Shown here: positions 9,179-63,840 of the stretch, in pieces
Position numbering within the stretch: the stretch's first letter is position 1
Layout of the letters: each line of letters starts with the position of its first letter
Origin: Blasia pusilla
Taxonomy: Eukaryota
Reading direction: 5' to 3'
DNA: 64,000 bases
NCBI GenBank assembly: GCA_050084515.1
Contig: CM114271.1
Coordinates: 9,238,001 to 9,302,000, forward strand
Program-made: the position numbers and the translations under genes
The notes under the pieces: generated by a model
What the model was told of the DNA's origin: nothing
Database searches by the model: none
The model's input: the letters and a program-made list of their open reading frames with translations, nothing else

Positions 9179-9195
9179 AAAAGTCTTCGACTATA

Positions 9196-10365: not shown

Positions 10366-10849
10366 AGGCTCAATTCCTGTACTATAATTTCAATTATATT
10401 TTAATGATGTGTATAATGAGAGTCAATCAGGTTTTTTTGTCCGTGAGCAACTCGTCGGAAGGCGACAGTTCTTTGGCTTAAGCGACCCATGCTCGGTGAG
10501 AGCAACCCGTCGGTTTCGGACGGGTTGCATCTTTCCACATACTGAGGAAAACGCGGTGTACTTGCAACCCGTCGGAACCCGACGGGTTGCGATTGCTTTT
10601 GCTTTTTCGATTGATTTTGGTTTTGGATGCAACTCGCCGATAGCGACGGGTTGCTCGGCGAGCATGGGCTGCTCTAGGCCAAAGCAACCCGTCGCCTTCC
10701 GCGAGTTGCTCACGGACAAAAACAACGGAGCCCGACGGGTTGTTTTGTCAACCCGTCGGGCTCGGCTGAGTTGATCAAAGTCGATTATTGAAAATGTTCT
10801 CAAGCGAATTCTTTAGTTTCGACATTGTTTCCAACGTCTTTGATTCTAG

Positions 10850-12151
10850 ATGGACCACTCCCTCGCTCTTCGCCCGTTCGCCCAAGCACAATTTCAGGTG
10901 TTCAAGATCCAGGATCCTGTGGATCCATGCTCGATGGGTGCAGCTTAGATAGTTTGTACAATTTCCCGGAATTTACATGCAAGACAAGATACCCCACTTC
11001 GGGAGGAAGGAAAAGTCGCCGACCACGATGCAAACGCTCATCGAGCTCTGCTCAAGGCCGGGTGACTTGGTGTTCGACTTAGTGGGACTTTCAGGGCAAG
11101 TATCAAAGGCGCTGGCAGAGTGGCGGGAACATTCGCCTCGAGGGAAGGCAGAATGTTTTGACCTTTGCAAGGAGGCAAAGCGAATCTGAAAGGCTCGTTG
11201 GGGCGTATAACTCTCCACGGCCGAGAGCTCGGTTCCGAGCCATCCTTGGTAGTGACTCCATCGTCACTTCCAACGATTTCCCAAAATCGGGAGGGCAAGG
11301 CCGAAAGTGATTTTGCAAGAGCTTTCGGACGATGACGAGTGAGTTAAAAGAACTCAACGACCCAAATTGACTGCAGCGTTTGGAGTAGGGATTTTTTTGA
11401 TAATGAGGCAAAAGATTTCATAGAATAGATCAAATGTACACTTCCGAGCTTTTTTGGATGATATAAAGCAGAAGATTTTTTCGATCGATGGTGGTGCTTG
11501 TAAATGTTTGCTGATCATTTTTTGTCTTTTCGAATGTGATCGTCTATGTACTCCACGGACTTCTATTTTGCAACCCGTCAGATTTCTCCTGCTTGCAACT
11601 TTCACTTTATGACCACTGCAACCCGTCGGATTTCTCCTCCTTGCAACTTTTCGCTTTTTCACCACTGCATCCTTTTTACCACCTCCAGGAAACCTATCTG
11701 ATTCCGACAGGTTGCGTGATCGGACCCTTTCCCTGTTGGTCCAACTTAAGAGGCAGTCTGGCGGGCTTCTTCCCTTGGCACCTTCCCCTCAACTCGTAAA
11801 GGTAGGCGTAGGCTTCTTTTCTTCTCTCAGACGTATTGGATTCCTTCTACGTGCGGTTGCCATAATGGTATTACCAGGGACGGAGCAGATATTGATACTG
11901 GATGGGTGTCACATTGCAGAGCGTACAAGGTATACTGCCGAGGAAGGCGGTGGGACTCGAGACAGGTTACATGGGACCGTTTTGGTGTACCTACGGGGGG
12001 GCCAAGGCTCTCGAATTCGCCAACATTTTTGATCCCCGTCTACAATCGGCCAGAGGAGCCACTTGAATCCCAGGACATTCCTTTGGTACTGTCACTAAGG
12101 AGAGTTAGGAGTAAATTTGTAGATGACGAGGCTGAAGAAATCATAGACTAG
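10850..12151 (+). pseudogene. 3' exons of ParB-MTase gene (SAM-binding part and terminal exon)
   Basis: KEKSPTTMQTLIELCSRPGDLVFDLVGLSG. Donor GA|GTGAGT at 11338/11339 and acceptor TTGCAG|A at 11919/11920 are phase-compatible. Ends RSKFVDDEAEEIID*. Confidence 0.7.
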
Positions 12152-13161
12152 GTCAAATGTCCATTTCCGAGGTTCCTTCGGAGGTAATGAAGGACGAGAT
12201 TTTTTCAACCCATAATGGTGTTTGTAAAAGTTTGCTGGAATATGTTTTTGGACTTGTGGATTGTGTTCTTTTAGCTACTCAGAATTACAATTCTGCAACC
12301 CGTATGATTCCGACTTTTTGCTTTTTGCCCACTGCAACTTTTTAACCATTTCCAGGCAACCTGTCGGATTCCGACAGGTTGACTGCTTGAGTGATTGGAC
12401 TCTATCCCGGTGAGACCAACTTCTGGCGCATTGTGGCGGGCTTCTTGACTTTTGGCTCGTTCCCCTTCATTCGTCCAACCAGTTGTAGGCTTCTTTTCTT
12501 GTCTAAGATGTGCAGGATTCCTACTACCTGTCGGATTGCCATTTCGGATTCCCAACCCGTTAGATCATCGTGGGTGCAGGGTGGAAGAAAATCACTTATA
12601 AAAATCTTTCCTTTCTTATGGTGAGCTTTCTTACGGGTTGGGAGGGGTGCAGCTTCTCCGTTTCTTAGCCTAAGGATCTGATTTGTTCACATTTCAGAAA
12701 GTTGGTCTTGAGCAGACACCATTCATAACCGACAGAAAGTTGGTTATGGGGCAATTTAGGGGAGGCCATGATGCAGGCAACAATCCTTGCAAAAAGAGAG
12801 CTACCCATCCGGGTGGTCCTCCAACAAAAATACCAAGGGCACTGCTTTTTGTTGACCGAGACAGGGAATGTTAAGAAACTTAGGCTCACATGGAGAGTGA
12901 TGGAAAAATGTTTAGGGTGGTCTTATGATGTCTCTTTTTTTCTCGCCCCCAGGAAAGAGGAGGTTTTTTTAGGGCCAAATGTGGACCACTAAATACTCTC
13001 TTCTAAAGATTTCCTGAATTTTAAAGCAAACAAAATTTTCAAATATGTCAAAAAATTTTGAAGAGAGGAGGCGGATTTGGGCTTTTTTTTTAAGAGAGAC
13101 TCTCCTCTCTTCCTCTCTTCCTCTCCTCTCTTACTCTCTCCTGTCAGAATACCAGCCCCCT

Positions 13162-14699: not shown

Positions 14700-15540
14700 C
14701 AAGATGGATTTAATTCTATTGCAACCTGTCGGAGTCCGATAGGTTGCACAATTTGGGAATCAGAGATGTGGGTAGCACCGAGTTCCATTTTTTGTTTCCG
14801 TGTCCCAATGCAAGTTGGAACCCGTCGGAGTCCATTGGGTTGGGTTCCTTCTTGTCGACCAATGGTCTTTTGAGTTGATTTTGCTAGCATCAAACACGAG
14901 ACATCGTTTGCATTTGCTAAGGCAATCAATCCTTGGGGACTATTACGGGATTGTCCAACTCAAGGTAGACCTTGTGACCTTATGGATTGCAAGGGGTTGC
15001 TTCGGAACTATGCATTGTCGTATTGTTATCCGAGGGATAGAAAAGCGTGCAATCCGTCGGCCTCCGACGGGTTGCGCAAGTGCCTTGCCTTGTAACGCTT
15101 ACATGAAGGAAGCGTGCAATCCGTCGGCTTTCGACAAGTTGCGCGGGTACCCCGCCTTGTTATCCCAAGATGAGGGAAGCGTGCAACCCGTCGGCCTCCG
15201 ACGGATTGCGCAAGTGCCTCGCCTTGTAACGCTTACATGAAGGAAGCGTGCAACCCGTCGACCTCCGACGAGTTTCGCGGATACGCCGCCTTCTTATCCC
15301 AAGACTAGGGAAGCGTGCAACCCCTTGGTCTCTGACGGGTTGCGCGGGTACCTCACGTTCTTGCTCGAAGACGGCGGAGGCGCGCAACCTGTCGGTTTCC
15401 GACGGGTTGCCAGGATAGCTCGGCTTTTGAACCCGAGGAGGACGGATGCTTGCAACCCGCGGGAAGTGTGCAACCTGTCGGAGCCGTTGGGTTGGTGGTT
15501 TTCACGTCCAGACTTCCATAACGGCCGACACGTCGCCGAC
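14700..15540. repeat. Palindrome array in the element's intergenic region
   Basis: Repeated GCAACCCGTCGG.N.CCGACGGGTTGC variants at roughly 65-70 bp spacing. Confidence 0.9.

Positions 15541-34467: not shown

Positions 34468-34469
<2 letters not shown>

Positions 34470-34508
<39 letters not shown>
34470..34508. repeat. (AG)n microsatellite
   Basis: Uninterrupted GA dinucleotide run. Confidence 0.95.
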
Positions 34509-34514
<6 letters not shown>

Positions 34515-34515
<1 letters not shown>

Positions 34516-34592
34516 TTTTTTTAAGAGAAACTCTCCTCTCTTTCTCTCTTCCTTTCCTCTATTCCTCTCTCTTTCCAGAATACTGGCCCCTC
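34515..34592 (-). mobile_element. Isolated right terminus of the MULE-like element
   Basis: ttttttaagaga..ctctcctctc...CCAGAATACTGGCCCCTC matches the ends at ~13085-13160 and, inverted, 49880-49960. Confidence 0.7.
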
Positions 34593-35027
34593 GCGGAAGG
34601 ATCAATTGGATCGTCGATATTGAAAACCTCAAATGTGTACTCCGACCGCACAAAACAGTACACATACAAATACTCGATCTACACAAAAGAAATTGGCAAT
34701 AATGTTGGTCTGCATAAAAACGCAACAAGAGAATGAATGATTTCTCTACCACAACCCAAAAGATTTTGACGGGTTGCTAAGATAAGATTGCCAAGGTTGC
34801 AAGTGGACAAACTTTGTGTGCACGGACTTATGTTCGTCCTTGGGACGGACATGTCCATTCGGGTTCGGATGCGGGCTCCATGGGCCCGCATGCATAAGGT
34901 TTGCATCCGTGCCTGTGCCACTCGAGCATTCCACCCTTTTTTTCCACTACGCATCTCGCCTAGAGCCCATTTTTAAGATCTGATTTCTAGCCCATGCCAG
35001 GCCTACGTCGCGGATGAGTTGGGCCCA

Positions 35028-39750: not shown

Positions 39751-40298
39751 AAGGATTCGAAAGTGGACATTAGCTCCAAACCCCTGAGGTGCGGTAAGAG
39801 GAGAGGGAGAGAGGAAGAGAGGAGAGGGCAGAGAGGAAACTACCTTCAACCGAAATAGATACTTTTTTTTTAAGAGAGTTTCCGTTGGGTTGAAGCGAGG
39901 AAACTTTTTGTGTGAGTTTTTTTGCACTTTTTTGTTCAGTTATTAAGTAGTCCCACAATTTTTTTTTCTCTTCCATATTTTGGCAACCCATCTGAGTCCG
40001 ACCGGTTGCAAATTGTACAAAATATACAAAACTGAAAAATCAATGGAATCATAAGTGTGGAACCAATCACTTTTTCCATCCAAGGTCTGGAAAAAATCTA
40101 TCATTTTCCCCGAGCTGAATAGAGTTCAAGCTCAAAGTGAATGTTCAGGAAAAATAAACTTAACCTAAAGTACTAAATCAAAGCTCAAATATGATAGCCA
40201 TAAAACAAAAATCCTTAAAATACATACTAGACAAAAAAAAGCTCAACCATTCCAATATATTAGACAAAAATTACAATCTAAAACCTCATTTTGCATCC

Positions 40299-42883
40299 TC
40301 AAAGTGGTTTGTTTAAAATACTTCGCACTTCTTTGAGGGACATAATTGGTTGGTGGATTCCTACTCCTACCTCCGACTCCCTTAAAACTACCAGCAACAC
40401 ATGGAACATGTGCTTAGAAGGGAAGTACCTTTTGCCACTTGTCTCTCTTTGGACAAAGTCATCACATGAACATGTGGGAAAGCAACAGATGTGTACCATA
40501 TACACCCCTGTGACACTTGAATTAACAGTGTTGTTCCTGACCCAATACATCCTTCCTATTCCATTGCCACTCAAGACATCTTTCGTGGCGATGATCTCCA
40601 TTTTTGCCTCCTAAGCTGATGCGATTCACTTTGCTCTCTCCACCGTTGGCCTACACATCCTAAACCCACCTACTGCAATCCGTCAGATTCAGACGGATTG
40701 CAAGGCCGAGGCATCCCATGAATGACTTTACTACCCATCGGTTTCCGTTGGGTTGCACACTCGGGCAACCCGTCGCATCCGACACCTTGCTTGGTTTCTT
40801 CGGTTTGAAATCCCTATAGTTCCCACGCTTCTCAACTTGAGCTGGAACTTTACAAACAATTCTCAATGTGAGCTTGAGAAGACAAAATAGTGAACTCACC
40901 TGCCGCATGAAGTTTCCCCATTGTCTCATACGTATAGTCCACCAACTCAACCAAGAGCACAACTCTTTGTACTTCCCCTCAATGGCATGCTTCCTCCACC
41001 ACCCATGAAGTTCTTCTTGGCATTCCATGGCCTGCTTCAAGGTTTTTCTGTCCTTGCAACGTTGGAGTAGAGTGACATGCTCTGTCCTCTTATTCTCCTT
41101 GATGCAAGATTTGGTGTACCGGTTCACAGACTGTTGCCAATGGAAAGCATCCGACTTTTCCCTCTCCGGCTGAACCTCTCCACCCCATAACGCTTCCCGG
41201 ATAGCAATCCACCCAGGTTGTGCATTGTCCGCCATGAACCCATAAATTTCCGGAGGTGGCCTTTTGTTTTCCTTCACCACCTCCAATAAGAGTAACCAGC
41301 ACATCTTCAAATTGCCAACGTCTTCTGCCTTTACTTCACAGACAAATATAGTTTTGAGTCCCTTCTCCACATGGTCATAAACGTGAGCACCCATCTTCAA
41401 CCATCCGTTCAGCACTCTGAAGCAAATATCAAAGCTTACCCAGCTCCTGTAAAGATCTTCCCCTTCCCTCATTCGATCTATAAGATCGAGGCCACTCGAC
41501 GGACCTGTGGTTGACATTTTGAAGACATAGGCCCTGGATCCCTCGCCTCCTTGGCCCATGAACTACCATCTCTGAATGAATGGAAATCTGGAGTTGGCCT
41601 TGATTCTGGCGATGGCATCCATTTTGGCCGTCTTTCCATCCAGAACACGTATTTGACGCAGCAAATTCCGGAAGCATTCAGGATCAGCGAGAAATGCGAG
41701 ATTTTCCCATAGTTTTTTCTCCTCAGCCGCCGTGATCTCGCTCTGTCCAGGGATTCCAAGCAATTGTTCACAAATTTGTGATGCCGTTGTGAGCTTGATC
41801 ACTCCAGGCTTTGAACTCGGAGAGTTTCTGTAGACCTCGACAACTTTCTTCGCCACATCCTCCTTGATGTCTCTCTGAATTGCATCGGTCACAGGATGAG
41901 TGTGGGAGCCAACATGAACTGCCAGCCTTGTGTACTCTGACGTGGAGCCCAAGTCGTGGACAATGAAAAATATGTATGCAGGACACGCTCCAACGCAGAA
42001 GGGCAATGCTTGACAATGAGGACATCGATGGCCTCCCGGCGGTATGGTGGCAACGACCTCGTATGGAGTTTATGCATTCTTAGGGGGGAATTGCAACGTA
42101 TTGACTCGCCCGTTGCGCTCTAGATACGGGCATGCTGGACTTCTACACTCCAAGGCTCCGACGCATTGGCGGCGGGAGACTAGTCCGTTGAAGCCTGCAC
42201 CATCGATGATAATCAGACTTTATGTCCATACCCTTCAGGCGTCCTCCATCTTTTTTTTGAGCAGGAGCAGCAAGTGGAGGCAACTCAAAAATGCAATTAC
42301 CATCGTACGTGGGCGGCAACTCGTCGACAAGAATGTGTTTGAAAATTTTCAAGGCCAGAGACAAAAGCAAACTATTGCCTGATACTCGCAAGAGGAACGA
42401 GTAGGCGGACAGAGGGCCCGGTTGGAGTCCGACAGATCCACTGAGGTTGATAACATCCGGAATCTCTTCAGGAAGAACAACATTGTTACGATCATGTGAA
42501 GTTGGAGTCGAGGCCGGATCTACTGAGCTAGGAGTTGCAAACGTAGAGCTCGGAGCACTAGGAAATTCTCGACCGTCTACTTGGGAAACAGACGAATTCA
42601 GGGGCAGGCCATAAACTCTGTATTGACCATTTGCTAGAGGTAGGAGATTCCATACTTTACAGTCTCCAGTCACTGGCTGGACTGTCTCACCTATTATGTC
42701 CTCCGTATTGTCCACCCTAACATCCTTTGATACAAAGATGGTTCCAATTTGGAGAAGAAATCGAACAGAGAGAAAATTTTCATCCACTGCTATGAAAGAC
42801 TCACGAGCTTACGGTTGAACGATTTGTGATTGAGGAAGGGCCGCCAGATGACTGCCACAAGTGAGCTTCATATAATTATCCAT
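40299..42883 (-). pseudogene. MULE-like DDE transposase with SWIM finger (most of exon 2 deleted)
   Basis: ATG 42883; VHVGSHTHPV; WVSFDIC (D1), GFMADNA (D2), SDAFHWQQ (CxxH-equivalent); SWIM-like CSCDDF...FPSKH at 40299-40601. Confidence 0.82.
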
Positions 42884-43124
42884 TCCCAAAAATTTCGTAT
42901 GGGAGGAGGGTGAGAATGAGAAAGAGAATCAGAATGAGATTTTTTAATCTATAGTGAATAGGAAAATAGATACTCTTGACACAATTTTACTGACAAGATG
43001 AAGTTTGGTGGGTGAAATTTTATGACACAATGGATTCAATTCTGTTGCAATAGATTCAATTCTGTTGCAATGTGTTACCGGATTGGGGAAGCAGAGACGT
43101 GGGTTGCGAAGCACACTTCATTTT

Positions 43125-43815
43125 GTTGGAACCCGTCGGAGTCCTGGTAACTCAACAATTAACCCAAGCTACGCGAAGCCTGCAACCCGTCGGCTTCGGA
43201 CGGGTTGCACGCTTGTGCCTTACCTTCAAACGCAAACATGGTCGAAGTTGGCAACCCGTCGCTCTCCGACGATTTGCTCAGATACCGCTCCTTCTTGCCC
43301 GAAGATGGCGGAGGCTTGCAACCCGTCCGCATCAGACGGGTTGCCCAATTATCTCACGGTGTAACACTTACATGAAGGAAGCGTGCAAACCGTCTGTTCC
43401 CGACGAGTTCCACGGGTGCCGCACCTTCTTGCCCAAAGACGGCGAGGCGTGCAACCCGTCGCCCTCCGACGGGTTGCGCAAGGGCCTCACCTTGTTTTGC
43501 TTACATGAAGGAAGCGTGCAACCTGTCGGACTCCGACGAGTTGCGCGGAAAGCCCGCATTGTTAACCCTTGACGAGGGAAGCGTGCAACCCAACGGTCTC
43601 CAACAGGTTGCGCGGGTACGCCCCGTTCTTGTCCAAAGACGGCGGAGGCGCGCAACCTGTCGGTCTCCGACGGGTTGCGTGGGTTCCTCGTGGTCTTGTC
43701 CGAAGACGGCGGAGGCGCTCAACCTGTCGGTCTCCGACGGATTGCTCGTGCACCTCGCGTTATCTTTCTAGGACGGCGGAGGCACGCAACCTGTCGGACT
43801 CCGACGGGTTGCCAT
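43125..43815. repeat. Palindrome array (~67 bp period) in the divergent promoter region
   Basis: Units start near 43182, 43251, 43318, 43384, 43450, 43518, 43587, 43652, 43720 and 43786. Confidence 0.92.
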
Positions 43816-43901
43816 TTTTCACGTCCGGACTTCCGTAACGGCCGGCACGTCGCCGTCGAAAGGACGATGGGACCCAACGGTCAGCCCAACAGCTAGAAAA
43901 G

Positions 43902-43909
43902 TATAAATA
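43902..43909 (+). promoter_or_regulatory. TATA box of the ParB-MTase gene
   Basis: TATAAATA ~240 bp upstream of ATG 44141, conserved in the inverted copy at ~55251-55258. Confidence 0.55.
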
Positions 43910-45164
43910 GGGCAGAAATCACTCATTTCCGGTTTCTCATTTCAAGATCTCCATTCCTCTCCCGCGTAGTAGCTGATCAGATACCAAGGGGCGTTTCACA
44001 CAGCGAGTCATCGCGAGTCGATACGAGGGAACGAGAGCGAGACGGTTCGAGCTACCCATCAAGGCGACTCATCTCGACATCAGCAAGGCGATTGATCGAG
44101 CGATTCATCGTGGACATAGGTGGAGGCATTTCCGGGAAAAATGATGAGGAAAAAAGCTCAAGCAACTAAGTCTGGGAGCTTCACTCTGAAGTCCATTAGG
44201 ACTCCTGCGTCAGCATCTCCAGGGCCTCGTTCGGCAAATGAGATTAGGCAGCAGGAAATTGAGGAGCGGGAAAGGGAAGCGGAGATGCACAACCAGGAGC
44301 TTCTTGCGAGATGTGTACAAGAGGCGCTCGATAAACAGAACGCAGAGGTTGAGACGTCGCAGGCCATGAAGAAAAGGATCGCCGACGAAAAGAGAGAAAA
44401 GAAGCGTCTGGACGCGTGGGTGAGGAGAGCAGAATTGGCTAAAGCGAGGAGGGAAAAAGCGATAGCCATTGACGAAAACCCTGCCCGTCCAACCAAAAGT
44501 GTTGAGATGCGGGAAGTCCCCGATGAAGTCCCGGGACACAATCAACATAGCCGAAACACCAGAAGTTCAAATCACGGACGATGAGGTCATGAGGACCGCC
44601 AGCGTGGAGATGGTGGACATTGCCGAAGAAGCCGGAGAGCGGTCATTCTCGTCTCCAAGCCCGGAGGAAGAGATCGACCTCTATCAGATTGATGAGTTCC
44701 TAGTCGACTTGCCAACTGCTGTCTCAGACAAGTTGGTTGGTTGCGGACAATGGAATACGTCCGCGAAATTCAGTCCGACGAGGACATCGCCAAGTTAAAA
44801 CAATCGGTGGTGACAACATCCTACGTCGACAACTTCCCTCCCTTCTATGTTCAGCCTTACAACGAGCATGGAACCCAAGCCCTGGTTACGGAGGAGGACT
44901 TGGAAAAGCTCGACACATTCTGGAGGATGAGAGACCAGGATTTCAGAAGGCAAGTAGAGGGCACGGAATTCAGCTGGATGAGGAATCTACATTTCTTCAT
45001 CTGGGATGGAAATCACAGGTTCATGGCGTGGACCAAGTTTGCAGAGGAGCGGGCCAACTCCTTGGAGGCACATTTTTGCGTGAAGGCAGTGGTCCTTCAT
45101 CCATACCCTCATCACATGGCGACGGTGGAGATGGCCATGCATGCCATGAACACATAAGTATCTT

Positions 45165-45915
45165 CTTGCTGCAAACCGTCGGACTCCGACAAGTTGTTTG
45201 GGTCGCCACTGTTGTTGGGATGCTTTTGGCCAAACGCAACTCGTCGGAGTCCGACGAGTTGCTCGATTGATGAACGGGTTAGGTTGTTTTTTGCCGAAAG
45301 CAACTCTTCGGACTCCGACGAGTTGCTCGACTTGCCGCCTTTTCAGGATGTTTTTTGAAGAAAGCAACTCGTCGGACTCCGACGAGTTGTTCGACTGACC
45401 ACAGGTTTAGTATGTTTTTGGCCCAAAGGAATCCGTCGGAGTCCGACGGGTTGCTCGACTCGCCGCCTTTTCAGGATGTTTTTTGAAGAAAGCAACTCGT
45501 TGGACTCCGACGAGTTGTTTGACTGACCACATGTTAAGTATGTTTTTGGCCCAAAGCAACTCGTCGAAGTCCGACGGGTTGCTTGACTCGAAGCTGTTTG
45601 GAGGTTTTTTTTAATGTTTTTGGCCGAAAGCAACTCGTCGGAGTGCAACGAGTTGCATTGGGAAGTTGGTATTGCTAATTTCGCATCGAATTGCAGGTTT
45701 CCATTCAATTGCGCAACCTGTCGGACTCTGACGGGTTGCTATGTTCATGTTTGATACAGACTATCTGACAACCCGTCAGAGTCGGACGGGTTGAAACTAG
45801 GCATTCACAAATGTGAATGCAATCTGTCGCACTCCGACGGGTTGCATCATTTAGCTCGTTGCTAGAATCCGACCTTGAGCTGTGACGACCCGTCAGAGTC
45901 CGACGGGTTGCAGGA
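45165..45915. repeat. Intronic palindrome array (~55-70 bp period)
   Basis: About a dozen GCAACYCGTCGGASTCCGACGRGTTG units following the ParB exon. Confidence 0.92.
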
Positions 45916-48084
45916 ACCCATGTAACTTACAAATTTTGTGACGGGTTGAGTTAAGATGTGCAGGATTGTATCGGAGGGGAATGTCACCCACCACTGGATC
46001 CAGGACTGCGATCGGGTGAAGAAGGTGCTTACGACACACCCAGCAGAGTACAAGGGGTTCTTGGGCGACGCCTTGGTAAATCAGATGCTTGCAAAGGGTG
46101 CATAGATAAAAAAAGAAGACTTGGGCAAATAAGTTTATTTCCCAAGATGCAGCCGTAACAATCCTCTGCTGGTCGAAGATACAGGACGCGAAGAAGAGCG
46201 CTACACTGGAGCTAGAGCGGAGGGAGAAAGTATCTGGGTTTGAGCGCGCGAAATTCATCCAAGCTGCAGTATCTGCAGCCACAAAACACACGGCGACCAA
46301 GATGCAGCGCTACATCAGCATTCTCAACCCCGAACTTGGTCCGGAGTTTTGCAAGGAGCTGAAGGCGATTATCAAGCGCCAGCGGAAAAGGGATGAACAT
46401 CCGCAAGGTCAGATTGGGGAGAAAGTGTCCCTGGATCGCGTGCATCGGTTTGCGTTGGCCGGCATAAGCGAGTTTAGGAGGATCTGACTGATGAAAATGA
46501 GTCTCGAGGGCACAGAGGCCCAGAAGAGGGCGGCACATCATCCTCCGGGTGTGTCCGATCCAGTGATCTCCCACTGGCTCCGCGAATGGTCATTCTGGGA
46601 CGCGTTGCGGGTTATCGGGAAGTCCGTGCTAGACAGTCTGCAATCGGAGCTCAAAAGATTAGAGCCCATTCCGGATGAAGCAAACCAGGAAAGTTCTGTA
46701 GATTTCGAGGTTTGGCTCGATGACATATGGGACAAGCCAATCAAATACCCAGGATTCAAGACGATGTTCAAGCTTTGCGTCCTCCCTCAGGCAGAGCTTG
46801 ACGAAGAAATCGACGGGAACAAACGGGATCAAGCAAAGAAGAAGCGAGATCTTAAGGAGCAGGCGCCCGATTCAGTTCGAGTAAAAGCTGCCCAACGGAT
46901 GGTCTTCAGGTACCTCGTCCACTGTAAGAATGCAGGTACCTGGGGAAAATTACCGGCAGCCTTGAAATTGTGGGCTTCGCCGCCTCATGGAGAGACATTC
47001 TCCATGTACGACATGGAGATGGTGCAGCACATGTCCGATTGGGAGGTGGAGAATTGCCCAATTTGGCTTGAATTCAACGACCCTGAAGACATCATTATGC
47101 AGTGGCCTCAGGACGGGACAACATCCCCAATTTTGTGCAGCCTGAGGACTTCTTCGGAGGAGATGTGGAAGAGCAAGCCCTCGAGACAGCTGAGTTGGCT
47201 TCAAAGGTCCGCACAGCCAAAGACAAATCCACAGCGCGTCTCAAAGGCAAGGCGAGGGGAGGGAAGAATTTCGAGGCCGATTCTTCCCAAAGAGAGGCTG
47301 AAGATTCAACGCCAGAGGCGGAATCATCCGGACGAGCGGGGAGAGAGGGTCGGACCAGGTCCTCGGCAAAAAAAACCCCACCAGAGTCCGAGGTCATAGA
47401 GACCCCGACAAGCCGTGCGCAGACTCGGGAGAAGCGGAAGCAAGAGGTGCCAGTGTTGTCCCAAGGAGAATACAGTCCATCATCCTTGGGAAGACACAGA
47501 GAAACAATGACCCGGACAAGTGTCCTCCTATAGTTCACGAATTTACTGGATGAGCTGAAAAGCTTCAGTTCTCAAGCGTCGACACCCGCCATTAATAAAT
47601 TGACAACGCTGGGACGGAAGCTCCAACGAAACGGGCACGCTCCCTGAACGGTGAATGGAGTGGTCCAAGAGGTTGCGGTGGATCTCTTGATCGCTAATCT
47701 GCCCTCGGGGTTGCGACTGTGGGACAAGAATCCGTCGGACGGGGTACCTAACTGGAATGTTCCCCTCTCTTATGACCAAATCGCGCTATTGTTCTCCTTT
47801 GCAGACGCCTATCTGAGTGACAGGGGCTTCTTCTTAGTGTTGACTGGAGGGAGCGAGGATGAGCTTTTCAACCTCCAGTGCGTCAAGAGGTCGCTAAAGT
47901 GGAGGACGGCGCAATCGTGGATCATAAAAAATGAGTACCCACTCTGATCCGCGACAAGTCAAATTCGTGTAGTATAATCTCAAATATATATTCAAATTCC
48001 TGTAGTATAATCTCAAATATATATTCAAATTCGGGTTAGGCTCAATGCGTGTGAATTTCAGATAGTATATCTCCGTGGTTTTTG

Positions 48085-48395
48085 TCCGTGAGCAACCCGT
48101 CAGAAGGCGACGGGTTGCTGGCTTAGAGCAGCCCATGCTTGGCTAAGAGCAACCCGTCGGTTTCCGACGAGTTGCATCTCTCCCAGAAACATAGGGAAAA
48201 CCGTGGTGTAATTGCAACCCGTCGGAACCCGACGGGTTGCACTTCCTTTTGGTTTTTCCCTGTGTTTCCGGAAAGCTGAAACCCGTCGAAAAGCGACGGG
48301 TTGCTCTCACCCAAGCATGGGCTGCTCTAGGCCAGCAACCCGTCGCCTTCCGACAGGTTGGTCATGGAACCCGTCGAACTCCGACAGGTTGCTCC
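48085..48395. repeat. Intronic palindrome array between the MTase exons
   Basis: Same palindrome; homologous to 10440-10770 and 52280-52635. Confidence 0.9.
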
Positions 48396-49006: not shown

Positions 49007-49870
49007 GAGGTGCGGTAAGAGGAGAGGAAGAGAGGAAGAGGAGAGAGGAAAGAGGAAACTACCTTCAACCGAAATAGATACTTTTTTTTAAGAGAGTTTC
49101 CGTTGGGTTGAAGAGAGGAAACTTTTTGTGTGAATTTTTTTGCACTTTTTTGTTCATTTATTAAGCAGTCCCACAGTTTTTTTTCCTCTTCCATATTTTG
49201 GCAACCCCTCTGAGTCCGACGAGTTGCAAATTACACAAAATTTAGAAAACTGAAAAATCAGTGGAATCATAAGTGTGGAACCAATCACTTTTTCCATCCA
49301 AGGTCTGGAAAAAATCTATCATTTGCCCCGGGCTGAATAGAGTTCAAGCTCAAAGTGAAGGTTGAGGAAAAATAAAAGAACAATCTAAAACCTCATTTTG
49401 CATCCTCAAAGTGGTTTGTTTAAAATATGGTTGAAGGCTTCCACATACATTTTTTCATCACCAGATCTCACAGCCGCCTTGACATAGAGCTCGTAGATCA
49501 ACGGCCCCTTTCCTTTTGTTATGCCTTTTGTAAGGAAGATATGGGATGTTGCAGACTGTATTGCTCTTGCCTGGTCTTGTTGGCATGCCTCCACAAGTGA
49601 AATTCGTTGGCATGCTTGTGATGACCTCCAAGAGGAATAAACACTTTCTGCTCCACTTGTGTTGGGGTAGAGGGCATTTTCATGAACGTTCAATCCCTGC
49701 AACGATGGCAATGTTAGAAGGGAACAAAAATAACTCAGGAGTCAAAGCAATAAGCGACCTGTCGGAACCAGACGGGTTGCAGGCCCGAGGCATCCCAGGA
49801 ACGACTCTACGACCCGTCGGGTTGTAACCTTAAACCCACCTACTGCAAACCGTCGGAACCAGACGGGTTG
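49007..49870 (-). mobile_element. Element left end plus deleted transposase exon 2 and intron fragment
   Basis: GAGGTGCGGTAAGAGG at 49007; ORF 49406-49711 with YPNTSGAESVYSSW (candidate catalytic E). Confidence 0.8.
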
Positions 49871-50199
49871 CACACTCAGGGGGGGCTGGTATTCTGGCAG
49901 GAGAGAGTAAGAGAGGAGAGGAAGAGAGGAAGAGAGGAGAGTCTCTCTTAAAAAAAAAGGGCCAAATCCGCCTCCTCTCTTCAAAACTTTCTGACATATT
50001 TGAAATTTTTGTTTGCTTTCAAATCCATGAAATCTTTAGAAGAGAGTAGGTAGAATTTGGCCCTAAAAAAACCTCCTTTTTCCTTGGGGCAAAAAAAAAG
50101 TAGACATCATAAGACCACTACAAACATTTTTCCATCTCCTCATCTCGGTCAACAAAAAGCAGTGCCCTTGGTATTTTTGTTGGAGGACCACCTGGATGC

Positions 50200-50954: not shown

Positions 50955-53900
50955 CTAGTCTATGATTTCTTCAGCCTCGTCATCTACAAATTTACTCCTA
51001 ACTCTCCTCGGTGATAGTACCAAAGGAATGTCCTGGGATTCAAGTGGCTCCTCTGGCCGGTTGTAGACGGGGATCGAAAATGTTGGCAAATTCGAGAGCC
51101 TTGGCCCCCCCCTAGGTACACCATAACGGTCCCATGTAACCTGTCTCGAGTCCCACCGCCTTCCTCGGCAAGATACCTTGTACGCTCTACAATGTGACAC
51201 CCATCCAATATCAATATGTGCTCCGCCCCCGGTAATACCACTATGGCAACATGGGGTAGAAGGAATCCAACACCTCGAGAGAAGAAAAGAAGCCGCCTTT
51301 GCCTTTTACGAGTTGAGGGAAGGTGCCAAGGGAAGAAGCCCGCCATCGCTCGATCCAAAAGGGTCCGATCAGGCAACCTGTCGGAATCAGACAGGTTTCC
51401 TGGAGGTGGTAAAAAGGGTCCTGTGGTCAAAAAGCGAAAAGTTGCAAGGAGGAAAAATCCGACGGGTTGCAAAGTAGAAGACCGTGGAGTACATAGACGA
51501 TCACATTCGAAAAGACAAAATGATCACCAAACATTTACAAGCACCACCATCGATCGAAAAAATCTTCTGCTTTATATCATCCGAAAAAAGCTCGGAACTG
51601 TACATTTGATCTATTCTATGAAATCTTTTGCCAAATTATCAAAAAACTCCAAACGCTGCAGTCAAGCTGGGTCGTTGAGTTCTTTCAACTCACTCGTCAT
51701 CGTCCGAGAGCTCTTGCAAAATCACTTTCGGCCTTGCCCTCCCGATTTTGGGAATCGTTGGAAGTGACGATGGAGTCACTACCAAGGGTGGCTCTGGAAC
51801 CGGAGCTCTCGGCTTTGGTGGAGAGTTGTACGCCCCAACGAGCCTTTCAGATTCTCGCTTTGCCTCCTTGCAAAGGTCAAGCGATTCTGCCTTCCCTCGA
51901 GGCAGAGAATGTTCCTGCCACTATGCCAGACGCCTTTGATACTCGCCCCTGAAAGGCCCACTAAGTCGAACACCAAGTCACCCGGCCTTGAGCAGAGCTC
52001 GATGAGCGTTTGCATCAGGGTTGGCGACTTTTCCCTTCCTCCCAGAAGCGGGGTATTGTCTTGCATGTAAATTCCCGGGGGAGGGGGGGGGGGGGATTGT
52101 ACAAACTATCTAAGCTGTACCCATCTGAGCATGGATCCACAGGATCCTGGATCTTGAACACCTGGAAATTGTGCTCGGGCGAGCAAAGCACGAGGAGTGG
52201 TCCATCAGTAAATCAACACGAAACAATGTCGAAACTAAAGAAGTCGCCTTGAGAAGATTTTCAATAACTGACTTTGGATCAACTTGTCGGAGTCTGACGG
52301 GTTGTTTGTCCCGGACCCACCCGTCGGAACCCGACGGGTTGCAGTTGCTTTTGGGTTTTCCAAGTTGATTTTGGTTTTCGGATGCAACCCGTTGGAAGGC
52401 GACGGGTTGCTGGCCTCAGACCAGCCCATGCTCGCCGAGAGCAACCCGTCGCTATACGGGTTGCATCCGAAAACCAAAATCAACTGCAACCCGTCGGGTT
52501 CCGACGGGTTGCAGGTACACCATGGTTTTCCCTCTGTATGTGGGAAAGATGCAACCCGTCGGAAACCGACGGGTTGCTCTTAGCCGAGCATGGGCTGCTC
52601 TAAGCCAGCAACCCGTCGCCTTCCGACGGGTTGCTCACGGACAAAAAAAACCCAGACTGACTCTCATTCTACACATCATTATAAGATAATTGAAATTATT
52701 GTACAGGAATATAGCCTTACCCGAGTCTGACTCGTTGCAGATCGGAGTGGGTACTCGTTTTTTATGATCCATGATTGTGCCGTCCTCCACTTTAGCGACC
52801 TCTTGACGCACTGGAGGTTGAAGAGCTCGTCCTCGCTCCCTCCATCCAACACCAAGAAGCAGCCCCTGTCACACTCGGATAGGGCGTCGCAAAGGAGAAC
52901 AAAAGTGCAATCTGGTCATAAGTGAGCGGCACATTCCACTCAGGTACCTCGTCCGCCGGATTTTCGCCCCAAAGTCGCAACCCCGAGGGCAGATCGGCGA
53001 TCAAGAGATCCACCGCAACCTCTTCCATGACTCCATTCACCATCCAGGCAGCGTGCCCGTTTTGTTGGAGCTTCCTTCCCAGCGTTGTCAATTTTTCGAT
53101 GGTAGTTGTCGACGCTGAGAATCAAGTCGTTCACTCATCCAAGAAAGAGGTGAATCGAAGGAGGACGCTTGTCCGGGTCATTGTTTGTCTGTGTCTTCCC
53201 AAGGATGGTGGGCTTTATTCTCCTTGGGACAACCCGGGCACCTCTCGCTTCCGCTTCTCTCAAGTCTGGGGACGGCTTGTCGGGGTTTCGATGACCTCGG
53301 ATTTTGGTGGCGTTTTCTTCGCCGAGGACCTGGTCCGACCCTCTCTTCCCGCTCGTCCGGACGATTCCGCCTCTGGCCTCTCATCTTCAGGCTCTCTTTG
53401 GGAAGTCTCGGCCTTTGAATTTTTCCCTCCCTCGCCTTGCCTTTGAGACCATTTGTGGATTTTTCTTTGGTGTCCGGACCTTTGAAGCCAACTCACTATC
53501 TCGTGGGCTGCTCTTCTGCATCTCCTCCAGAAGAAGTCTTCAGCCGGACGAAATTGGGGATGTCGTCTTGTCCGAGGCCACCTTTGCATCATGAAGCACT
53601 CGTAAGTCCTTATCCGTGATGTCTTGTGGTCGTTGAAGTCGAGCCAAATGGGGCAATTCTCCACCTCCCAATCCGACATGTGCTGACCCATCTCCACGTC
53701 GTACATGGAGAATGTCTCTGCATCCGGCGGCGAAGCCCACAATTTCAAGGCTATCGGAAATTTTCCCCACGTACCTGCGTTCTTACACTGGACGAGGTAT
53801 CTGAATACCATCCGTTTGGCAGCTTTTAGTCAAACATTATCGGCCGTCTGCTCCTGTAGATCTCGCTTCTTCTTCGCTTGATCCCGTTTGTTACCCTCTA

Positions 53901-55344: not shown

Positions 55345-55945
55345 ATGGCAACCCGTCGGATCCGACAGGTTCCGCTGTGCGCCTCTGCCATCCTGGGTAC
55401 GTTGCCATGTGCGCAAGCAACCCGTCGGAGACCGACGGGTTGAGCGCCTCTGTCGTCTTTGGACCAGAACCCGAGGTACCCGCGCAACCCGTCGGAGACC
55501 GACATGTTGCGCGCCTCCGCCGTGTTTAGGATAGGAACGGGACGTACCCAGGAAATCCGTCGGAGACCGTTGGGTTCCATGCTTCCCTCGTCAAGGGTTA
55601 AGAACGCGGGGTTCCCGTGCAAGTCGTCGGAGTTCGACTGGTTGCACACTTCATGTAAGCACCACAAGGCGAGGCCCTTGCGCAACACGTTGGAGGGCGA
55701 CGGGTTGCACGCCTCGCCGTCTTTGGGCAAATAGGTGCGGAACTCGTCGGGAACAGACGGTATGCACACCTCCGGCATCTTTGGGCAAGAAGGATCGGTA
55801 TCCGAACAACTCGTCGGAGAGCGACGGGTTGCCCGCTTTGACCATGTTTGGCAAAAGGGTGCAACCTGTCCGAAGCCGACGGGTTGCAGGCTTCGGTTAG
55901 CTTGTGGTAATTTTTGAGTTACCAGGACTCCGACGGGTTCCAGCA
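55345..55945. repeat. Palindrome array, inverted copy of the divergent promoter region
   Basis: Reverse-complement homolog of 43125-43815. Confidence 0.9.
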
Positions 55946-58202: not shown

Positions 58203-58400
58203 GTGAGTTCACTATTTTGTCTTGTCAAGCTCACGCTGAGAATTGTTTGTAAAGTTGTAGCTCAGGGTGAGAAGCGTGGGAACTATATGGATTTCAAACA
58301 CAAGAAACCAAGCAAGCTGTCGGATGCGACGGGTTGCCCGAGTGTGCAACCCAACGAAACCGACGGGTTGCATCCAGATTTTTGGTGCAACCTGAGTGTG

Positions 58401-61400
58401 GAGGTGTGGTAAGAAGAGAGGAAGAGAGGAGAGAGGAGAGAGGAAACTACCTTCAACCGAAATAGATACTTTTTTTTAAGAGAGTTTCCGTTGGGTTGAA
58501 GAGAGGAAACTTTTTGTGTGAATATTTTTGCCTTTGCTTTTGTTCATTTATTAAACAATCCCCGCTTTATTTTCCTCTTCCATATTTTGGCAACCCCAGT
58601 GAGTCCGACGAGTGGCAAATTGCACAAAATTTAGAAAACTGAAAAATCAGTGGAATCATAAGTGTGGAACCAATCACTTTTTCCATCCAAGGTCTGGAAA
58701 AAATCTATCATTTGCCCCGGGCTGAATAGAGTTCAAGCTCAAAGTGAAGGTTGAGGAAAAATAAAAGTACAATCTAAAACCTCATTTTGCATCCTCAAAG
58801 TGGTTTGTTTAAAATACTTCGCAGTTCTTTGAGGGAGATAATTGGTTGGTGGATTCCTACTCCTACCTCCGACTCTCTTAAAACTACTAGCAACACATAG
58901 TACATGTGCTTACAAGGGAAATACCTTTTGCCACTTGTCTCTCTTTGGACAAAGTCATCACATGAACATGTGGGAAAGCAACAAATGTGCACCACATACA
59001 CCCCTGTGACACTTGAATTTGAGTGTTGTTCTGACCCAATACATCCTTCCTATTCCATTGCCACTCAAGACATCTTTCGTGGCGATGATCTCCATTTTTG
59101 CCTCCCGAGCTTATTGCATTCGCTTTGCTCTCTCCACCGTTGGCCTGCACATTCTGTTTCTCTTCACCCCATTTCTAGACTCAAACAGAAATAATGGATT
59201 GAGATCATCCACCTTCTCCGGGTACATGTTGACATCAATCTTGGGTTGAATACAAAATGCGAAGGTCTCTGTAATGCTGAACATGCTCCAAACTTCCCCG
59301 TCTCTGAGTGCGAAACCGACACTTGTAAGATTGTCCACTTCGTCTTGAGTGTAGTTCGTGCCTGCGGCGATGGGCCAAATCGTGGGGGTATTCCCGGGAG
59401 CTCCAATGGCAGCCGGACAAGACTTCCGGAAAGCGAAATATTCATTTGGGCAGAAGAAGTACTTCAATTGATCCCTGGTCCTCGTGAAACGATCAAAGGT
59501 TTTGAGTCCCGAAAACCCAGGCAGAGGTCGTCCAGTCCTTGTACAGTTCTTATTTAGGAAAGTGCCGCATGCTCTCCTAATGCCATCAGATCCTGCCCTG
59601 TAGGTGGGTCCACGTCCTGGGTTGCTCCGAGATAAATGCCACCGTTTTAGGTTGCAATCCACCTCCATTACCGGAATCCCATATTGTTGAACCACCCGAG
59701 TGACAGGATGTTGCGAACTTCCAGCAACGGAGGGCTTTTGAAATAAAACATTCATTGATTTTGGAGAAGTAACTCCATCACGGATTTGGGACGGGTCTGG
59801 GGTCCCCGAATACCTGGGCGGTGTAATGTCCTCATCCAAATCAATCACCGGATTTGTTCCTCGATGCTGCCTCTTCACCTGCCTGAAGTCAAGATACTTA
59901 TATGGTCTCCACGAGTCTTGTTCGGACTGCTCTACCACCATCTGTATGGGACATCTTGAAACCCGCCCACAAATATCCCCACCTATGTGTATGTCTTGCT
60001 CGAGTGGAATTCCAGCTACGCACCGGTTGAAGGCTTCCACATACCGTTTTTCATCACCAGATCTCACTGCCGCCCTGACATAGAGCTCGTATATCGACGG
60101 CCCTTTTCCTTTTGTTATGCCTTTTGTGAGAAAGATATGGGATGCTACAGACTGTAGCATTGCTCTTGCCTGGTCTTGTTGGCATGCCTCCACAAGTGAA
60201 ATTCGTTGGCATGCTTGAGACGACGTCCAGGAGGAATGAACACTTTTTGCTCCACTTGTGTTGGGGCAGAGGGCATTTTCATGAACGTTCAGTCCCTGCA
60301 ATGACGGAAATGTTAGAAGGGAACGAAAATAACTCAGGAGTCAAAGAAATAAGCGACCTGTCGGAACCAGACGGGTTGCAGGCCCGAGGCATCCCATTAA
60401 TGACTCTGCGACTCGTCGGGTCCCGACGTGTTGTAACCTTAAACCCACCTACTGCAACCCGTGGGAACCCGACGGGTTGCAAGGCCGAGGCATCCCATGA
60501 ACGACTCTGTAACCTGTTGGGTCCCGACGGGTTGCACACTCGAGTTGCACCAAACATCTGGATGCAACTCGTTGGTTTCCGTTGGGTTGCACACTCGGGC
60601 AACCTATCGCATCCGACAGCTTGCTTGGTTTCTTGGGTTTGAAATCCATATAATTCCCACGCTTCTCACCCTGAGCTACAACTTTACAAACAATTCTCAG
60701 TGTGAGCTTGACAAGACAAAATAGTGAACTCACCTGCCGCATGAAGTTTCCCCATTCTCTCATACGTACAGTCCACCAACTCAACCAAGAGCACAACTCT
60801 TTGTACTTCCCCTCAATCGCATGCTTCCTCCACCACCCATGAAGGTCTTCTTTGCATTCCATGGCCTGCTTCAAGGTTTTGCTGTCCTTGCAGCGTTGGA
60901 GTAGAGTGACATTCTCTGTCCTCTTATTCTCCTTGATGCAAGATTTGGTGTACCAGGTCACAGACTGTTGCCAATGGAAAGCATCCGACTTTTCCCTCTC
61001 CGATTGAACCTCTCCACCCCATAACACTTCCCGGATAGCAATCCACCCAGGTTGTGCATTGTCCGCCATGAACCCATAAATTTCCGGAGGTGGCCTTTTG
61101 TTTTCCTTCACCACCTCCAATAAGAGTAACCAACACATCTTCAAACTGCCAACGTCTTCTGCCTTTACTTCACAGACAAATATAGTTTTGAGTCCCTTCT
61201 CCACATGGTCATAAACGTGAGCACCCATCTTCAACCATCCGTTCAGCACTCTGAAGCAAATATCAAAGCTTACCCAGCTCCCGTAAAGATCTTCCCCTTC
61301 CCTCATTCGATCTATAAGATCGAGGCCACTCGACGGACCTGTGGTTGACATTTTGAAGATATAGGCCTTGGATCCCTCGCCTCCTTGGCCCATGAACTGC

Positions 61401-61475: not shown

Positions 61476-61476
61476 C

Positions 61477-62325: not shown

Positions 62326-62334
62326 TACAAGTTA

Positions 62335-63218: not shown

Positions 63219-63234
63219 GTGAGTATCTTTAACA

Positions 63235-63840
63235 CTTACGCAACTCGTCGGGACGGTTGTTGGGATGCTTTAACACTTACGCAACTCGTCGGACTCCAAC
63301 GAGTTGCTCGATTGATGAATGGGTTAGGTTTTTTTTGCCGAAAGAAACTCGTCGGACTCCGACGGGTTGCTCGACTCGACGCTTTTTCGGATGTTTTTTA
63401 AGAATGCAACTCGTCATACTCCGAAGAGTTGTTCGATTGATCACAGATTTAATTAGTTTTTGGCCCAAAGCAAACCGTCAGAGTCCGACGGGTTGCTCGA
63501 CTCGCCGCCTTGTCATGATGTTTTTTGAAGAATGCAACTCGTCGGAGTCCGACGAGTTGTTCGACTGACTGCAGGTTTATAATGTTTTTTGCCCAAAACA
63601 ACCCGTCGGAGTCCGACGGGTTGCTTGCCTCGAAATTGTTTTTGGCCAAAATCAACCCGTCAGAGTCCGACAGGTTGCTATGTTCACATTAGTATGTTCA
63701 GTTGCACAACCCGTCGGAGTCCGACGGGTTGAAACCAGGCATTAGCAAATCTGAATGCAATCCATCGGACTCCGATGGGTTGCATCATTTAGCTCGTTGC
63801 TAGAATCCGACCTTGAGCTGTGACGACCCGTCGGAGTCCA
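63235..63840. repeat. Intronic palindrome array
   Basis: Homolog of 45165-45915; contains a perfect CAACCCGTCGGAGTCCGACGGGTTG near 63599. Confidence 0.92.

Follow-up and report, generated by a model that had tools for sequence, protein, structure and literature searches.

A 64,000-nucleotide stretch of the Blasia pusilla genome (assembly GCA_050084515.1, contig CM114271.1, positions 9,238,001 to 9,302,000 of the forward strand; hereafter the window, numbered from its first letter) carries dozens of copies of a sharply bounded 27-bp palindrome, gathered into short-period arrays in the non-coding parts of a single family of probably Mutator-like transposons. The feature is real and strongly non-random, and it is a sequence-specific site cluster of one transposon family. 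We tentatively favor the possibility that the palindromes are putative cis-acting sites for a dimeric protein encoded by the element itself, most likely the product of an accessory gene with a predicted ParB/Srx-fold domain. An earlier note on this DNA, which drew attention to the palindromes between positions 43125 and 45915, had proposed selection for a binding site of a "ParB-MTase" (methyltransferase, MTase) or of the transposase, with intronic RNA hairpins as an alternative, and its individual claims are taken up below together with the results that bear on them.

Architecture and Spacing of the Palindromes

The motif, GCAACCCGTCG-N5-CGACGGGTTGC, was matched 62 times in the window with up to three mismatches, against a mean of 0.00 and a maximum of 0 matches in 100 dinucleotide-preserving shuffles, and 86 times with up to five mismatches, where 20 block shuffles all gave 0 matches, in full agreement with the earlier claim of dozens of recurrences. 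The span from 43125 to 45915 holds 22 of the 86 palindromes (10 at 43182-43812 and 12 at 45171-45911), and a full-length element has about 30-40. Distances between neighboring palindromes, when limited to 110 bp (n = 64), fall between 46 and 74 bp in 58 cases, with modes at 67 bp (15 times), 64 bp (9 times) and 55 bp (7 times); this periodicity analysis reproduces the claimed spacing of about 55-70 bp. With Tandem Repeats Finder, the promoter arrays gave periods of 67 and 134, and the arrays at 45.2 and 63.3 kb gave 64 and 128.

The length of the center is indeed fixed, as half-sites with at most two mismatches each are joined by N5 in 69 pairs, by N4 in five and by N2 in one. That the five central nucleotides vary in sequence, as the earlier note had it, is correct for the inner bases and incorrect for the outer ones: the outer G and C carry 1.3 bits each (0.0 bits for the central base), and this outermost pair is complementary in 65 of the 86 palindromes, the next pair being complementary as well in 45 of 86, which leaves a one-base center. 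Because the outer G and C are conserved and complementary, the motif is really a 12-N3-12 palindrome, and often 13-N1-13. Centers of the GANTC type, a CcrM-like site, were considered as a possible MTase target and set aside, because only about half of the centers fit and the MTase motif of the accessory protein is non-canonical (see below).

Neighboring units have homologous linkers and therefore derive from tandem duplication, which rules out another candidate, namely that the 55-67-bp units are tiny inverted-repeat elements placed 5 bp apart. Raw DNA reads of the source organism reveal unit-number variants among genomic copies (e.g., 283 reads skip 67 bp). Tandem duplication of 55-67-bp units gives rise to the arrays and alters their length. 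Scans of public sequence collections show the rarity of the motif and supply no relatives: metagenome contigs yielded two isolated single loci and prokaryote genomes one, all in unrelated contexts and none in arrays, and viral contigs yielded 0 matches.

Confinement to Non-coding DNA of the Element

Self-comparison of the window and end alignments identified 10.4-18.7 kb and 39.8-64.0 kb as copies of one family, partly rearranged and partly nested in one another. All 86 palindromes lie within these copies (10.5-18.2 or 39.9-63.8 kb) and none in the other 31.4 kb; moreover, none of the 86 overlaps homology-supported coding DNA, which occupies 9596 of the 32557 element bp (29.5%). Thus, within the window, the motif is confined to non-coding element DNA, as had been proposed.

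The palindromes form five groups (Table 1). Promoter arrays of 10, 8, and 8 units lie between the divergent genes. The array that follows the ParB/Srx exon counts 12 units in copy B and 9 in copy D, and a two-unit remnant of it is left in copy C at 54595-54676. The 3' array has 6 units each in B and C and is reduced to two-unit remnants in both A copies. A fourth array, with 2, 2, and 5 units, is located at a gap in the transposase gene, and a last group is found in the tail and at the left end. The promoter array of copy B separates the transposase (minus strand) and ParB/Srx (plus strand) genes; TATAAATA is found at 43902, ~90 bp beyond the end of this array, and the largest array adjoins the TATA-like box of the accessory gene. 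The 45171-45911 array is composite, with eight palindromes at a 64-bp period (128-bp higher-order unit) and four spaced by 51-66 bp with unrelated linkers; the centers of this array are mostly GAGTC or GACTC. The array at 40675-40775 is positioned between the main transposase exon and a SWIM-like exon, and the corresponding array of copy x has two palindromes at 49754-49871. The 3' remnant of copy A1 includes two palindromes and orphan half-sites at 10447-10758, and the equivalents of the A1 remnant and tail palindromes in copy A2 are at 16167-16252 and 17152-18212.

This distribution also bears on a host-factor explanation. Most units contain GTCGG-N3-CCGAC and, hence, two inverted copies of CCGAC, which we take to be the core of the DRE/CRT (dehydration-responsive element/C-repeat) bound by AP2/ERF factors, and transposon promoters are known to carry host stress elements. 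The position of the largest array just upstream of a TATA-like box would suit a recruited stress-responsive enhancer. We regard this as highly improbable, since conservation extends over all 11-13 arm positions, well beyond a 5-bp core, and sites are also present deep in the gene gaps and in the tail.

Two earlier descriptions of site location need qualification. Sites were called subterminal, which is true in a loose sense of the single palindrome ~200 bp inside the left end and of degenerate ones 0.5-1.6 kb from the right end, and untrue of the terminal ~190 bp, which contain no palindrome at either end of the element. Sites were also called intronic. This is well founded for the 3' array, which in copy C is enclosed by a GTAAGG...ttccag intron of the minus-strand accessory gene (~52720 to 52163), and in the case of the transposase-gene array it rests on a homology gap. 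For the array at 45.2-45.9 kb, the intron assignment has GT and AG borders and a gap in the protein alignment in its favor. A simple intron is nevertheless doubtful here because of an in-frame TAA, the ending of 24 of 46 homologues at this point and the coverage of the array by sense RNA. Specifically, in both copies (45155-45159 and 63220-63224) the GT is immediately preceded by an in-frame TAA that closes the ParB/Srx exon, and among the 46 homologues that reach the exon end, 24 end within 2 residues and 22 run on into long proteins; no splice across 45152-45964 is among the listed RNA joints. This pattern suggests a conserved short, ParB/Srx-only product beside the long isoform, and the 45.2-45.9 kb array may be the 3' untranslated region or a retained intron of this short product.

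Conservation of the Arms Relative to Their Flanks

Information content per position averages 1.38 and 1.39 bits in the two arms compared with 0.12 and 0.13 bits in the 12-base flanks. When arrays are considered separately, the arms (0.77-0.95 alike) exceed the 14-bp flanks (0.25-0.65) in 10 of 10. Flanks fall to random level (0.25-0.28) in four arrays, the arms of which are at 0.80-0.95, with the reservation that two of these four are 3' arrays, which consist of inverted duplications, so that their flanks, here compared in direct orientation, should be compared in reverse. At five or more positions of the element, array types combine common arms with unrelated linkers and different periods. 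These data substantiate two claims of the earlier note, that the arms are more conserved than their surroundings and that flanking DNA differs between arrays. The arms, but not the flanks, are preserved by something.

An explanation by neutral minisatellites, i.e., amplification via slippage or unequal exchange with arm likeness resulting from recent copying or homogenization, has to be weighed against this evidence. The tandem periods (64, 67, 128, and 134), the variation of unit number among genomic copies and the presence of C/G transitions expected of methylated-cytosine decay among the substitutions all agree with it. The same is true of the comparison between paralogous copies, in which arms differ at 61 of 684 positions (8.9%), close to the 231 of 1954 (11.8%) seen in linkers (Fisher p = 0.04). 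Since arms diverge nearly as fast as linkers between copies, selection is visible only in the deeper comparison; recent decay has affected arms and linkers to nearly the same extent, which would be expected of dead copies. In the deeper comparison, a purely neutral process appears distinctly unlikely, as it would have to produce common arms at five or more array positions with unrelated linkers and different periods, including the four arrays with flanks at random level, and to keep all 86 palindromes out of exons and of DNA outside the family. It is also at odds with base composition: the CpG observed/expected ratio is 1.24-1.25 in the arrays, 0.68 in exons and 0.57 in non-element DNA, and the arms, the most CpG-rich part, would be expected to decay fastest, yet they are the best kept. 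The original contrast between selection and "plain tandem amplification" can thus be retained only in part: preservation of the arms is sustained, and tandem amplification is not an alternative to it, being a part of the process.

Pairing and the Case for RNA or DNA Structure

Conserved palindromes could also be maintained for the structures that they form, either hairpins in transcripts (with roles in processing, stability or small RNA formation) or DNA cruciforms promoting slippage and rearrangement. Each unit would provide a stem of 12-13 bp, and a 301-nt array stretch folds at -145.1 kcal/mol (z = -8.1 relative to shuffles); strong RNA folding, however, must be expected of any palindrome array. 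A stretch at 48085-48368 in the 3' array constitutes a 118-nt inverted repeat (81% complementary) centered on the palindrome at 48214, and opposite-strand joints in DNA reads occur there (48215-48370). The array at 45.2-45.7 kb is covered by RNA reads in the sense direction, which is in favor of transcript hairpins, and the promoter arrays are almost without RNA (depth ≤ 1.2), which speaks against them.

Among 946 arm pair cells, 764 are complementary, 97 have single transitions (53 on one strand and 44 on the other) and 85 have other mismatches. Pair-keeping double changes, the kind of evidence that structure would call for, are found in 16 cells at positions 5-8. All 16 are C:G to T:A transitions, and because several are located in paralogous or tandem units, the number of independent events is too small to speak for structure. 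Where the sense strand of an array is known, single changes that remain G.U-compatible in sense RNA (17) are fewer than C.A-incompatible ones (31), so that wobble asymmetry gives no backing to selection for sense-RNA hairpins, and the alternative of intronic hairpins that accompanied the original proposal is left without support on this count. Furthermore, the arm sequence itself is conserved beyond pairing and is common to every array type, and Dicer-type products would require stems longer than 12-13 bp. Complementarity down to a single central base (45 of 86) is useless for a hairpin and a gain for a two-fold symmetric duplex, which points to a DNA site. Overall, we judge a structural role unlikely and conclude that the arm sequence is read, more likely as duplex DNA.

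The Accessory Gene and Its Predicted Product

The accessory gene is transcribed divergently from the transposase gene. A search of 1.84 billion representatives found 107 homologues of its ParB/Srx domain at E ≤ 0.001, and the 10 that were looked up comprise nine from the liverwort Riccia sorocarpa and one European Nucleotide Archive record. The closest homologues of the family are in liverworts, R. sorocarpa and Calypogeia fissa being the species concerned. Long Riccia homologues (1191-1207 amino acids) are collinear with the window exons (Table 1), among which copy B has an in-frame stop at 46485-46487 and copy A2 contributes a motif-I exon at 16568-16798. A Pfam scan of 10 Riccia homologues returned no family.

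Assignment of the ParB/Srx fold is based on a structural model of the domain (predicted local distance difference test, pLDDT, 85). An all-against-all fold search with this model listed 28 chains with Z ≥ 2, of which the first 12 are without exception ParB/Srx proteins, headed by KorB (Z 5.1, root-mean-square deviation 2.5 over 79 residues) and including sulfiredoxin, PadC, a serine kinase, the N-terminal domain of pNOB8 ParB, BrxU, Spo0J, SspE, Atu1540, SbnI, and DndI; solved structures among the fold matches are 8qa8, 7ol9, 6sdk, and 1vz0. The top rows of a Foldseek search are Noc, KorB, and ParB, with E of 0.13-6. The assignment is thus weak by score and consistent in kind. A PDB profile search with the domain alignment gave two matches only, eL24 and PYL5, which we take to be chance matches rather than relatives.

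Evidence for a methyltransferase is confined to the C-terminal part of the protein. The match to PF01555 covers only the C-terminal, motif-I part of that family, with 23.7-26.2 bits against a cut-off of 26.7, in three of the five Riccia proteins scanned. In place of the canonical catalytic motif of DNA methylases, (D/N/S)PP(Y/F), the motif-IV position is occupied by DLPTG or DMPSG in Riccia and by NLPSG or DLPSG in the window (47672-47710; 52990-52950 on the minus strand). Judging by these sequences, the MTase-like tail may act on another substrate or be inactive. The name "ParB-MTase" of the earlier note can, therefore, be kept for its first half, given 12 ParB/Srx proteins among the 12 top fold chains; a working DNA methylase is uncertain, with scores below the Pfam cut-off and no canonical motif IV.

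The Transposase Gene as a Possible Alternative Source of a Binding Protein

The main transposase exon is collinear with homologues P0116-P0118, with an identity of 37-38% over ~430-450 residues in copy B and of 44-47% in the segments of copies D and C. A downstream exon (open reading frame, ORF, 40299-40610) contains a CxC...(S)xH SWIM-like motif, and the nearest neighbors of the transposase by language-model (Atlas) features are MULE and ZSWIM clusters (scores 0.93-0.86). As Pfam recognizes no transposase domain (no FAR1, MULE, or SWIM in the transposase ORFs or in P0116-P0118), the designation of the element as Mutator-like is probable rather than proven. The homologues have a C/H-rich N-terminal stretch, presumably WRKY/FAR1-like, before the catalytic core.

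Through this N-terminal region, the transposase might bind the palindromes, either to activate the transcription of its own copies or to enhance transposition. Arrays within the transposase gene and the palindrome ~200 bp inside the left end are compatible with such a role, and there is a precedent in the AtMu1c transposase, which binds motifs of its own family and brings about both lower methylation and active transcription (10.64898/2026.08.24.746577). A transposase, however, must recognize the element ends, and the motif-free terminal ~190 bp argue against an end-recognition site, whereas AtMu1c binding, according to the same account, peaks at the terminal inverted repeats (10.64898/2026.08.24.746577). 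Most palindromes are internal, at distances of up to several kb from either end, and no FAR1, MULE, or SWIM domain was found by Pfam in the transposase ORFs or their homologues. We consider the transposase an unlikely reader of these sites.

Abundance and Expression of the Family

Approximately 1.9 Gb of raw DNA reads from the source organism were aligned to the window at ≥ 90% identity, resulting in depths of ~2600-3500 on transposase exon bins and ~360-840 on array bins. These depths, taken together with the joints produced by gain and loss of units, indicate that the family is high-copy and that its arrays are more variable than its exons. In three raw RNA runs, depth is 1-13 and mate direction is opposite over the two genes; the family is transcribed at a low level. 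As a separate observation, ~30-50 RNA reads per run match only a 34-bp piece at 44741-44774, with unrelated sequence on both sides; the fragment apparently also occurs in an expressed gene at another genomic location.

A Putative Self-Binding Accessory Protein

The accessory protein is favored as the reader of the palindromes because the termini are free of the motif, an array lies beside the TATA-like box of its gene, and published precedents exist for both ParB-like and VANC proteins. In the mechanism that we propose, a symmetric (dimeric) protein encoded by the element would bind the palindromes in a sequence-specific manner, and the many closely spaced sites would allow it to coat or mark the copies of its element genome-wide. 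Such coating could regulate the divergent promoter and/or counter host silencing, in the way of VANC on VANDAL21, TnpA on Spm, and KorB or ParB on their operators.

A more specific version, drawn by analogy, would make this system a eukaryotic counterpart of ParB-parS or KorB loading. The dimer would load at the palindromes, its nucleotide-switch domain would clamp and spread over the element, and the MTase-like tail would mark DNA or chromatin, so that silencing is averted and the divergent promoter stays active, with site arrays and protein co-evolving through tandem duplication. We view this elaborated scenario as rather unlikely in its entirety.

Several observations weigh against assigning the palindromes to the accessory protein. 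In absolute terms, the fold similarity is weak (Z 5.1; Foldseek E of at least 0.13), and the invariant D-G-N-H motif of the family (WDGNHR in the window) is unlike the arginine-rich cytidine triphosphate (CTP) box of ParB. In known ParB proteins, moreover, the ParB/Srx domain is a nucleotide switch and not the reader of the site. No DNA-binding domain was recognized in the accessory protein by Pfam, PDB profiles or fold search: Pfam gave only a weak BrkDBD match (E = 0.019), a PDB profile search with the long accessory alignment gave 0 matches, and a 430-residue model of P0005 (pLDDT 75), helical after residue 140, gave no informative match beyond the ParB/Srx domain in a fold search dominated by a long helical hairpin. 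The window copies are pseudogenes with in-frame stops and frame breaks, the restriction of the motif to the family is assessed within 64 kb, and sense RNA covers the 45.2-45.7 kb array (depth 2-9) at least as deeply as the exons. To these should be added the near-equal divergence of arms and linkers between paralogous copies described above.

Other Features of the Window

The palindrome arrays, genes and terminus discussed in this study are listed in Table 1. Left termini of the family are at 39785 (copy B), 49006 (copy x), and 58401 (copy D), and right termini at 13155 (A1), 18705 (A2), and 49886 (C, inverted). Both kinds of terminus are rich in purines and form imperfect inverted repeats of each other. 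A target-site duplication, which in Mutator-like elements measures about 9 bp, is unreadable because no copy has both ends inside the window. The order of nesting is B tail <- x <- C <- D (junctions at 49872-49886 and 58372-58401). Two of the four nesting junctions that could be placed are within 30 bp of a palindrome of the transposase-gene array, which may reflect self-targeted insertion, or chance.

Copy D contains two ORFs, 59111-60340 (minus strand, 409 amino acids) and 61438-62742 (plus strand, 434 amino acids), that are inverted duplicates of each other (59280-60135 vs. 62325-61469, 94.6% identical); both are cysteine-rich and lack a Pfam match, and their sequence is absent from the corresponding place in copy B. 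A 20-bp tandem repeat (43028-43071, 2.2 copies, 95% matches) separates the transposase ORF from the promoter array. A separate repeat family is represented at 7144-10036 and 34023-35900 (80-81% identity), and long ORFs at 7893-9200 (plus strand) and 22052-23173 (minus strand) have no Pfam match. The 10 selected long ORFs of the window, where the copies are degenerate, matched no Pfam family at E ≤ 0.01; at E ≤ 10, window ORFs gave weak matches to DUF1015 (0.0078), BrkDBD (0.019), and ISL3 (0.44).

Table 1. Palindrome arrays, coding segments and terminus of the transposon family in the 64-kb window
Feature	Copy	Positions	Strand	Details or basis
Promoter array	B	43182..43812		10 palindromes; 67-bp period, 134-bp higher-order unit
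Array downstream of ParB/Srx exon	B	45171..45911		12 palindromes
3' array	B	48092..48392		6 palindromes; between exons matching Riccia P0110 residues ~1014 and ~1106
Transposase-gene-gap array	B	40675..40775		2 palindromes and half-sites; 55-bp period
Single palindrome ~200 bp inside left terminus	B	39983..40009		Equivalent in copy x at 49201
Promoter array	A' (deletion derivative)	14721..15410		8 palindromes; 67-bp period
Promoter array	C (inverted)	55417..55887		8 palindromes
3' array	C	52279..52634		6 palindromes
Transposase-gene array	D	60353..60590		5 palindromes; 55-bp period
Array downstream of ParB/Srx exon	D	63281..63783		9 palindromes; paralogous to 45171-45911
3' array remnant and tail palindromes	A1	10502..12382		5 degenerate tail palindromes with GATTC/GATTT centers
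Predicted ParB/Srx-fold exon	B	44747..45157	+	WDGNHR motif
Downstream exons of long accessory protein	B	45964..47854	+	Collinear with Riccia P0110 and P0012, residues ~322-1014
Exon with motif-I region of MTase-like tail	C	51863..52042	-	P0110 residues 1106-1165
Transposase gene, with frame breaks	B	40299..42808	-	Homologue alignments
Left (transposase-side) terminus	B	39785..39850	+	Purine-rich imperfect inverted repeat of right end; end alignments

Significance and Comparison With Known Systems

Transposons with sequence-specific regulators of their own (VANC, TnpA, and the AtMu1 transposase) show how elements escape silencing and how regulatory networks originate. ParB-like accessory proteins of eukaryotic transposons have been noticed in algae, with hypothetical targets; the palindromes described here, together with the accessory protein of the Blasia element, offer a candidate site-protein pair. 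This candidate pair is unusually clean, combining a long, sharply defined palindrome present in dozens per copy with a ParB/Srx gene beside it in a high-copy family. If true, loading of the ParB-parS type would be without precedent in land plants, and the family would provide a direct test bed for the idea, raised for algal transposons, of a self-binding accessory protein.

A well-characterized point of reference is the VANC system, whose target-motif arrays are reportedly found in VANDAL6 of Arabidopsis as well as in VANDAL21. The target bound by VANC21 is a 9-base motif concentrated in tandem repeats of VANDAL21 introns and upstream regions (PMC5735166). The likeness to VANC suggested in the earlier note agrees with this account, in that a family motif is dense in the non-coding parts of an element and embedded in tandem repeats (PMC5735166). 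Both systems involve a Mutator-like element (probable in our case) with an accessory gene, a family-specific motif dense only in non-coding parts (here, as established for the window) and tandem repeats that gain or lose units between copies. They differ in the motif, which for VANC is described as 8-9 bp long, asymmetric and in one orientation (PMC5735166), as opposed to a 27-bp palindrome. They also differ in the protein, which here has a predicted ParB/Srx fold and an MTase-like tail and is set apart from VANC by fold and not by sequence comparison, and in the evidence, as binding and methylation loss have been demonstrated for VANC, whereas here they are hypothetical.

Dense motif clusters are likewise bound by Spm/En TnpA and the AtMu1c transposase, at the element termini; motifs at low density elsewhere are unbound, and the outcome of binding is methylation loss and activation (10.64898/2026.08.24.746577). 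Dense clusters of a family-specific motif and an element-encoded reader, putative in our case, are common to these systems. The clusters are terminal there, whereas in the Blasia family the termini are motif-free and the clusters internal.

A different set of parallels concerns the accessory gene. In the bacterial ParB-parS, KorB-operator and SopB-sopC systems, a protein with a ParB/Srx domain reads a palindromic site, sometimes in tandem, with the gene located beside the sites. The clustering of palindromic sites next to a ParB/Srx-domain gene is shared with the Blasia element. The differences are a DGNHR motif in place of the CTP box, a eukaryotic host, dozens of sites per element, and a 27-bp site with a free center; in addition, unlike in ParB-parS, no helix-turn-helix was recognized and no ParA-type partner emerged from the Pfam scan of the 10 selected ORFs.

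Among eukaryotic transposons, the red-algal Plavaka elements (EnSpm) possess PAG3, a gene for a ParB-like and 2-oxoglutarate (2OG) oxygenase protein that is flanked by tandem inverted-repeat arrays, and the authors who describe it propose that the PAG3 protein binds and modifies its own element (10.1101/2025.02.11.637652). The two systems share a eukaryotic DNA transposon with a ParB-like accessory gene and adjoining tandem inverted-repeat arrays, and binding is a proposal in both. They are distinguished by transposase superfamily and host lineage (MULE/ZSWIM neighbors here), by the partner domain (2OG oxygenase there, MTase-like tail here) and by array location, which is adjacent to the gene there, by the text description, and extends over promoter, gene gaps and tail here. 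A further relative by domain composition is Sola1-1_Ec32 of Ectocarpus, which, in the relevant passage of a paper citing Iyer et al. 2011 and Petroll et al. 2025, encodes a 1104-amino-acid ParB-like and DNA MTase protein opposite the transposase (PMC12477816). Its domain pair, size (1191-1207 amino acids in Riccia) and divergent arrangement relative to the transposase resemble what we describe; it belongs to the Sola superfamily and a brown alga, that passage does not mention palindrome arrays (PMC12477816), and the MTase domain here scores below the Pfam cut-off and has (D/N)LP(S/T)G at the catalytic motif.

Overall, the kind of feature is known, both from arrays targeted by transposon regulators and from inverted-repeat arrays that adjoin ParB-like accessory genes. 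The same combination as here was not found in the literature searched, a search that had supplements and subscription journals outside its scope. What appears to be new is the combination of a probably Mutator-like element with liverwort homologues, a 27-bp palindrome, and the spread of this palindrome through all non-coding parts of the element.

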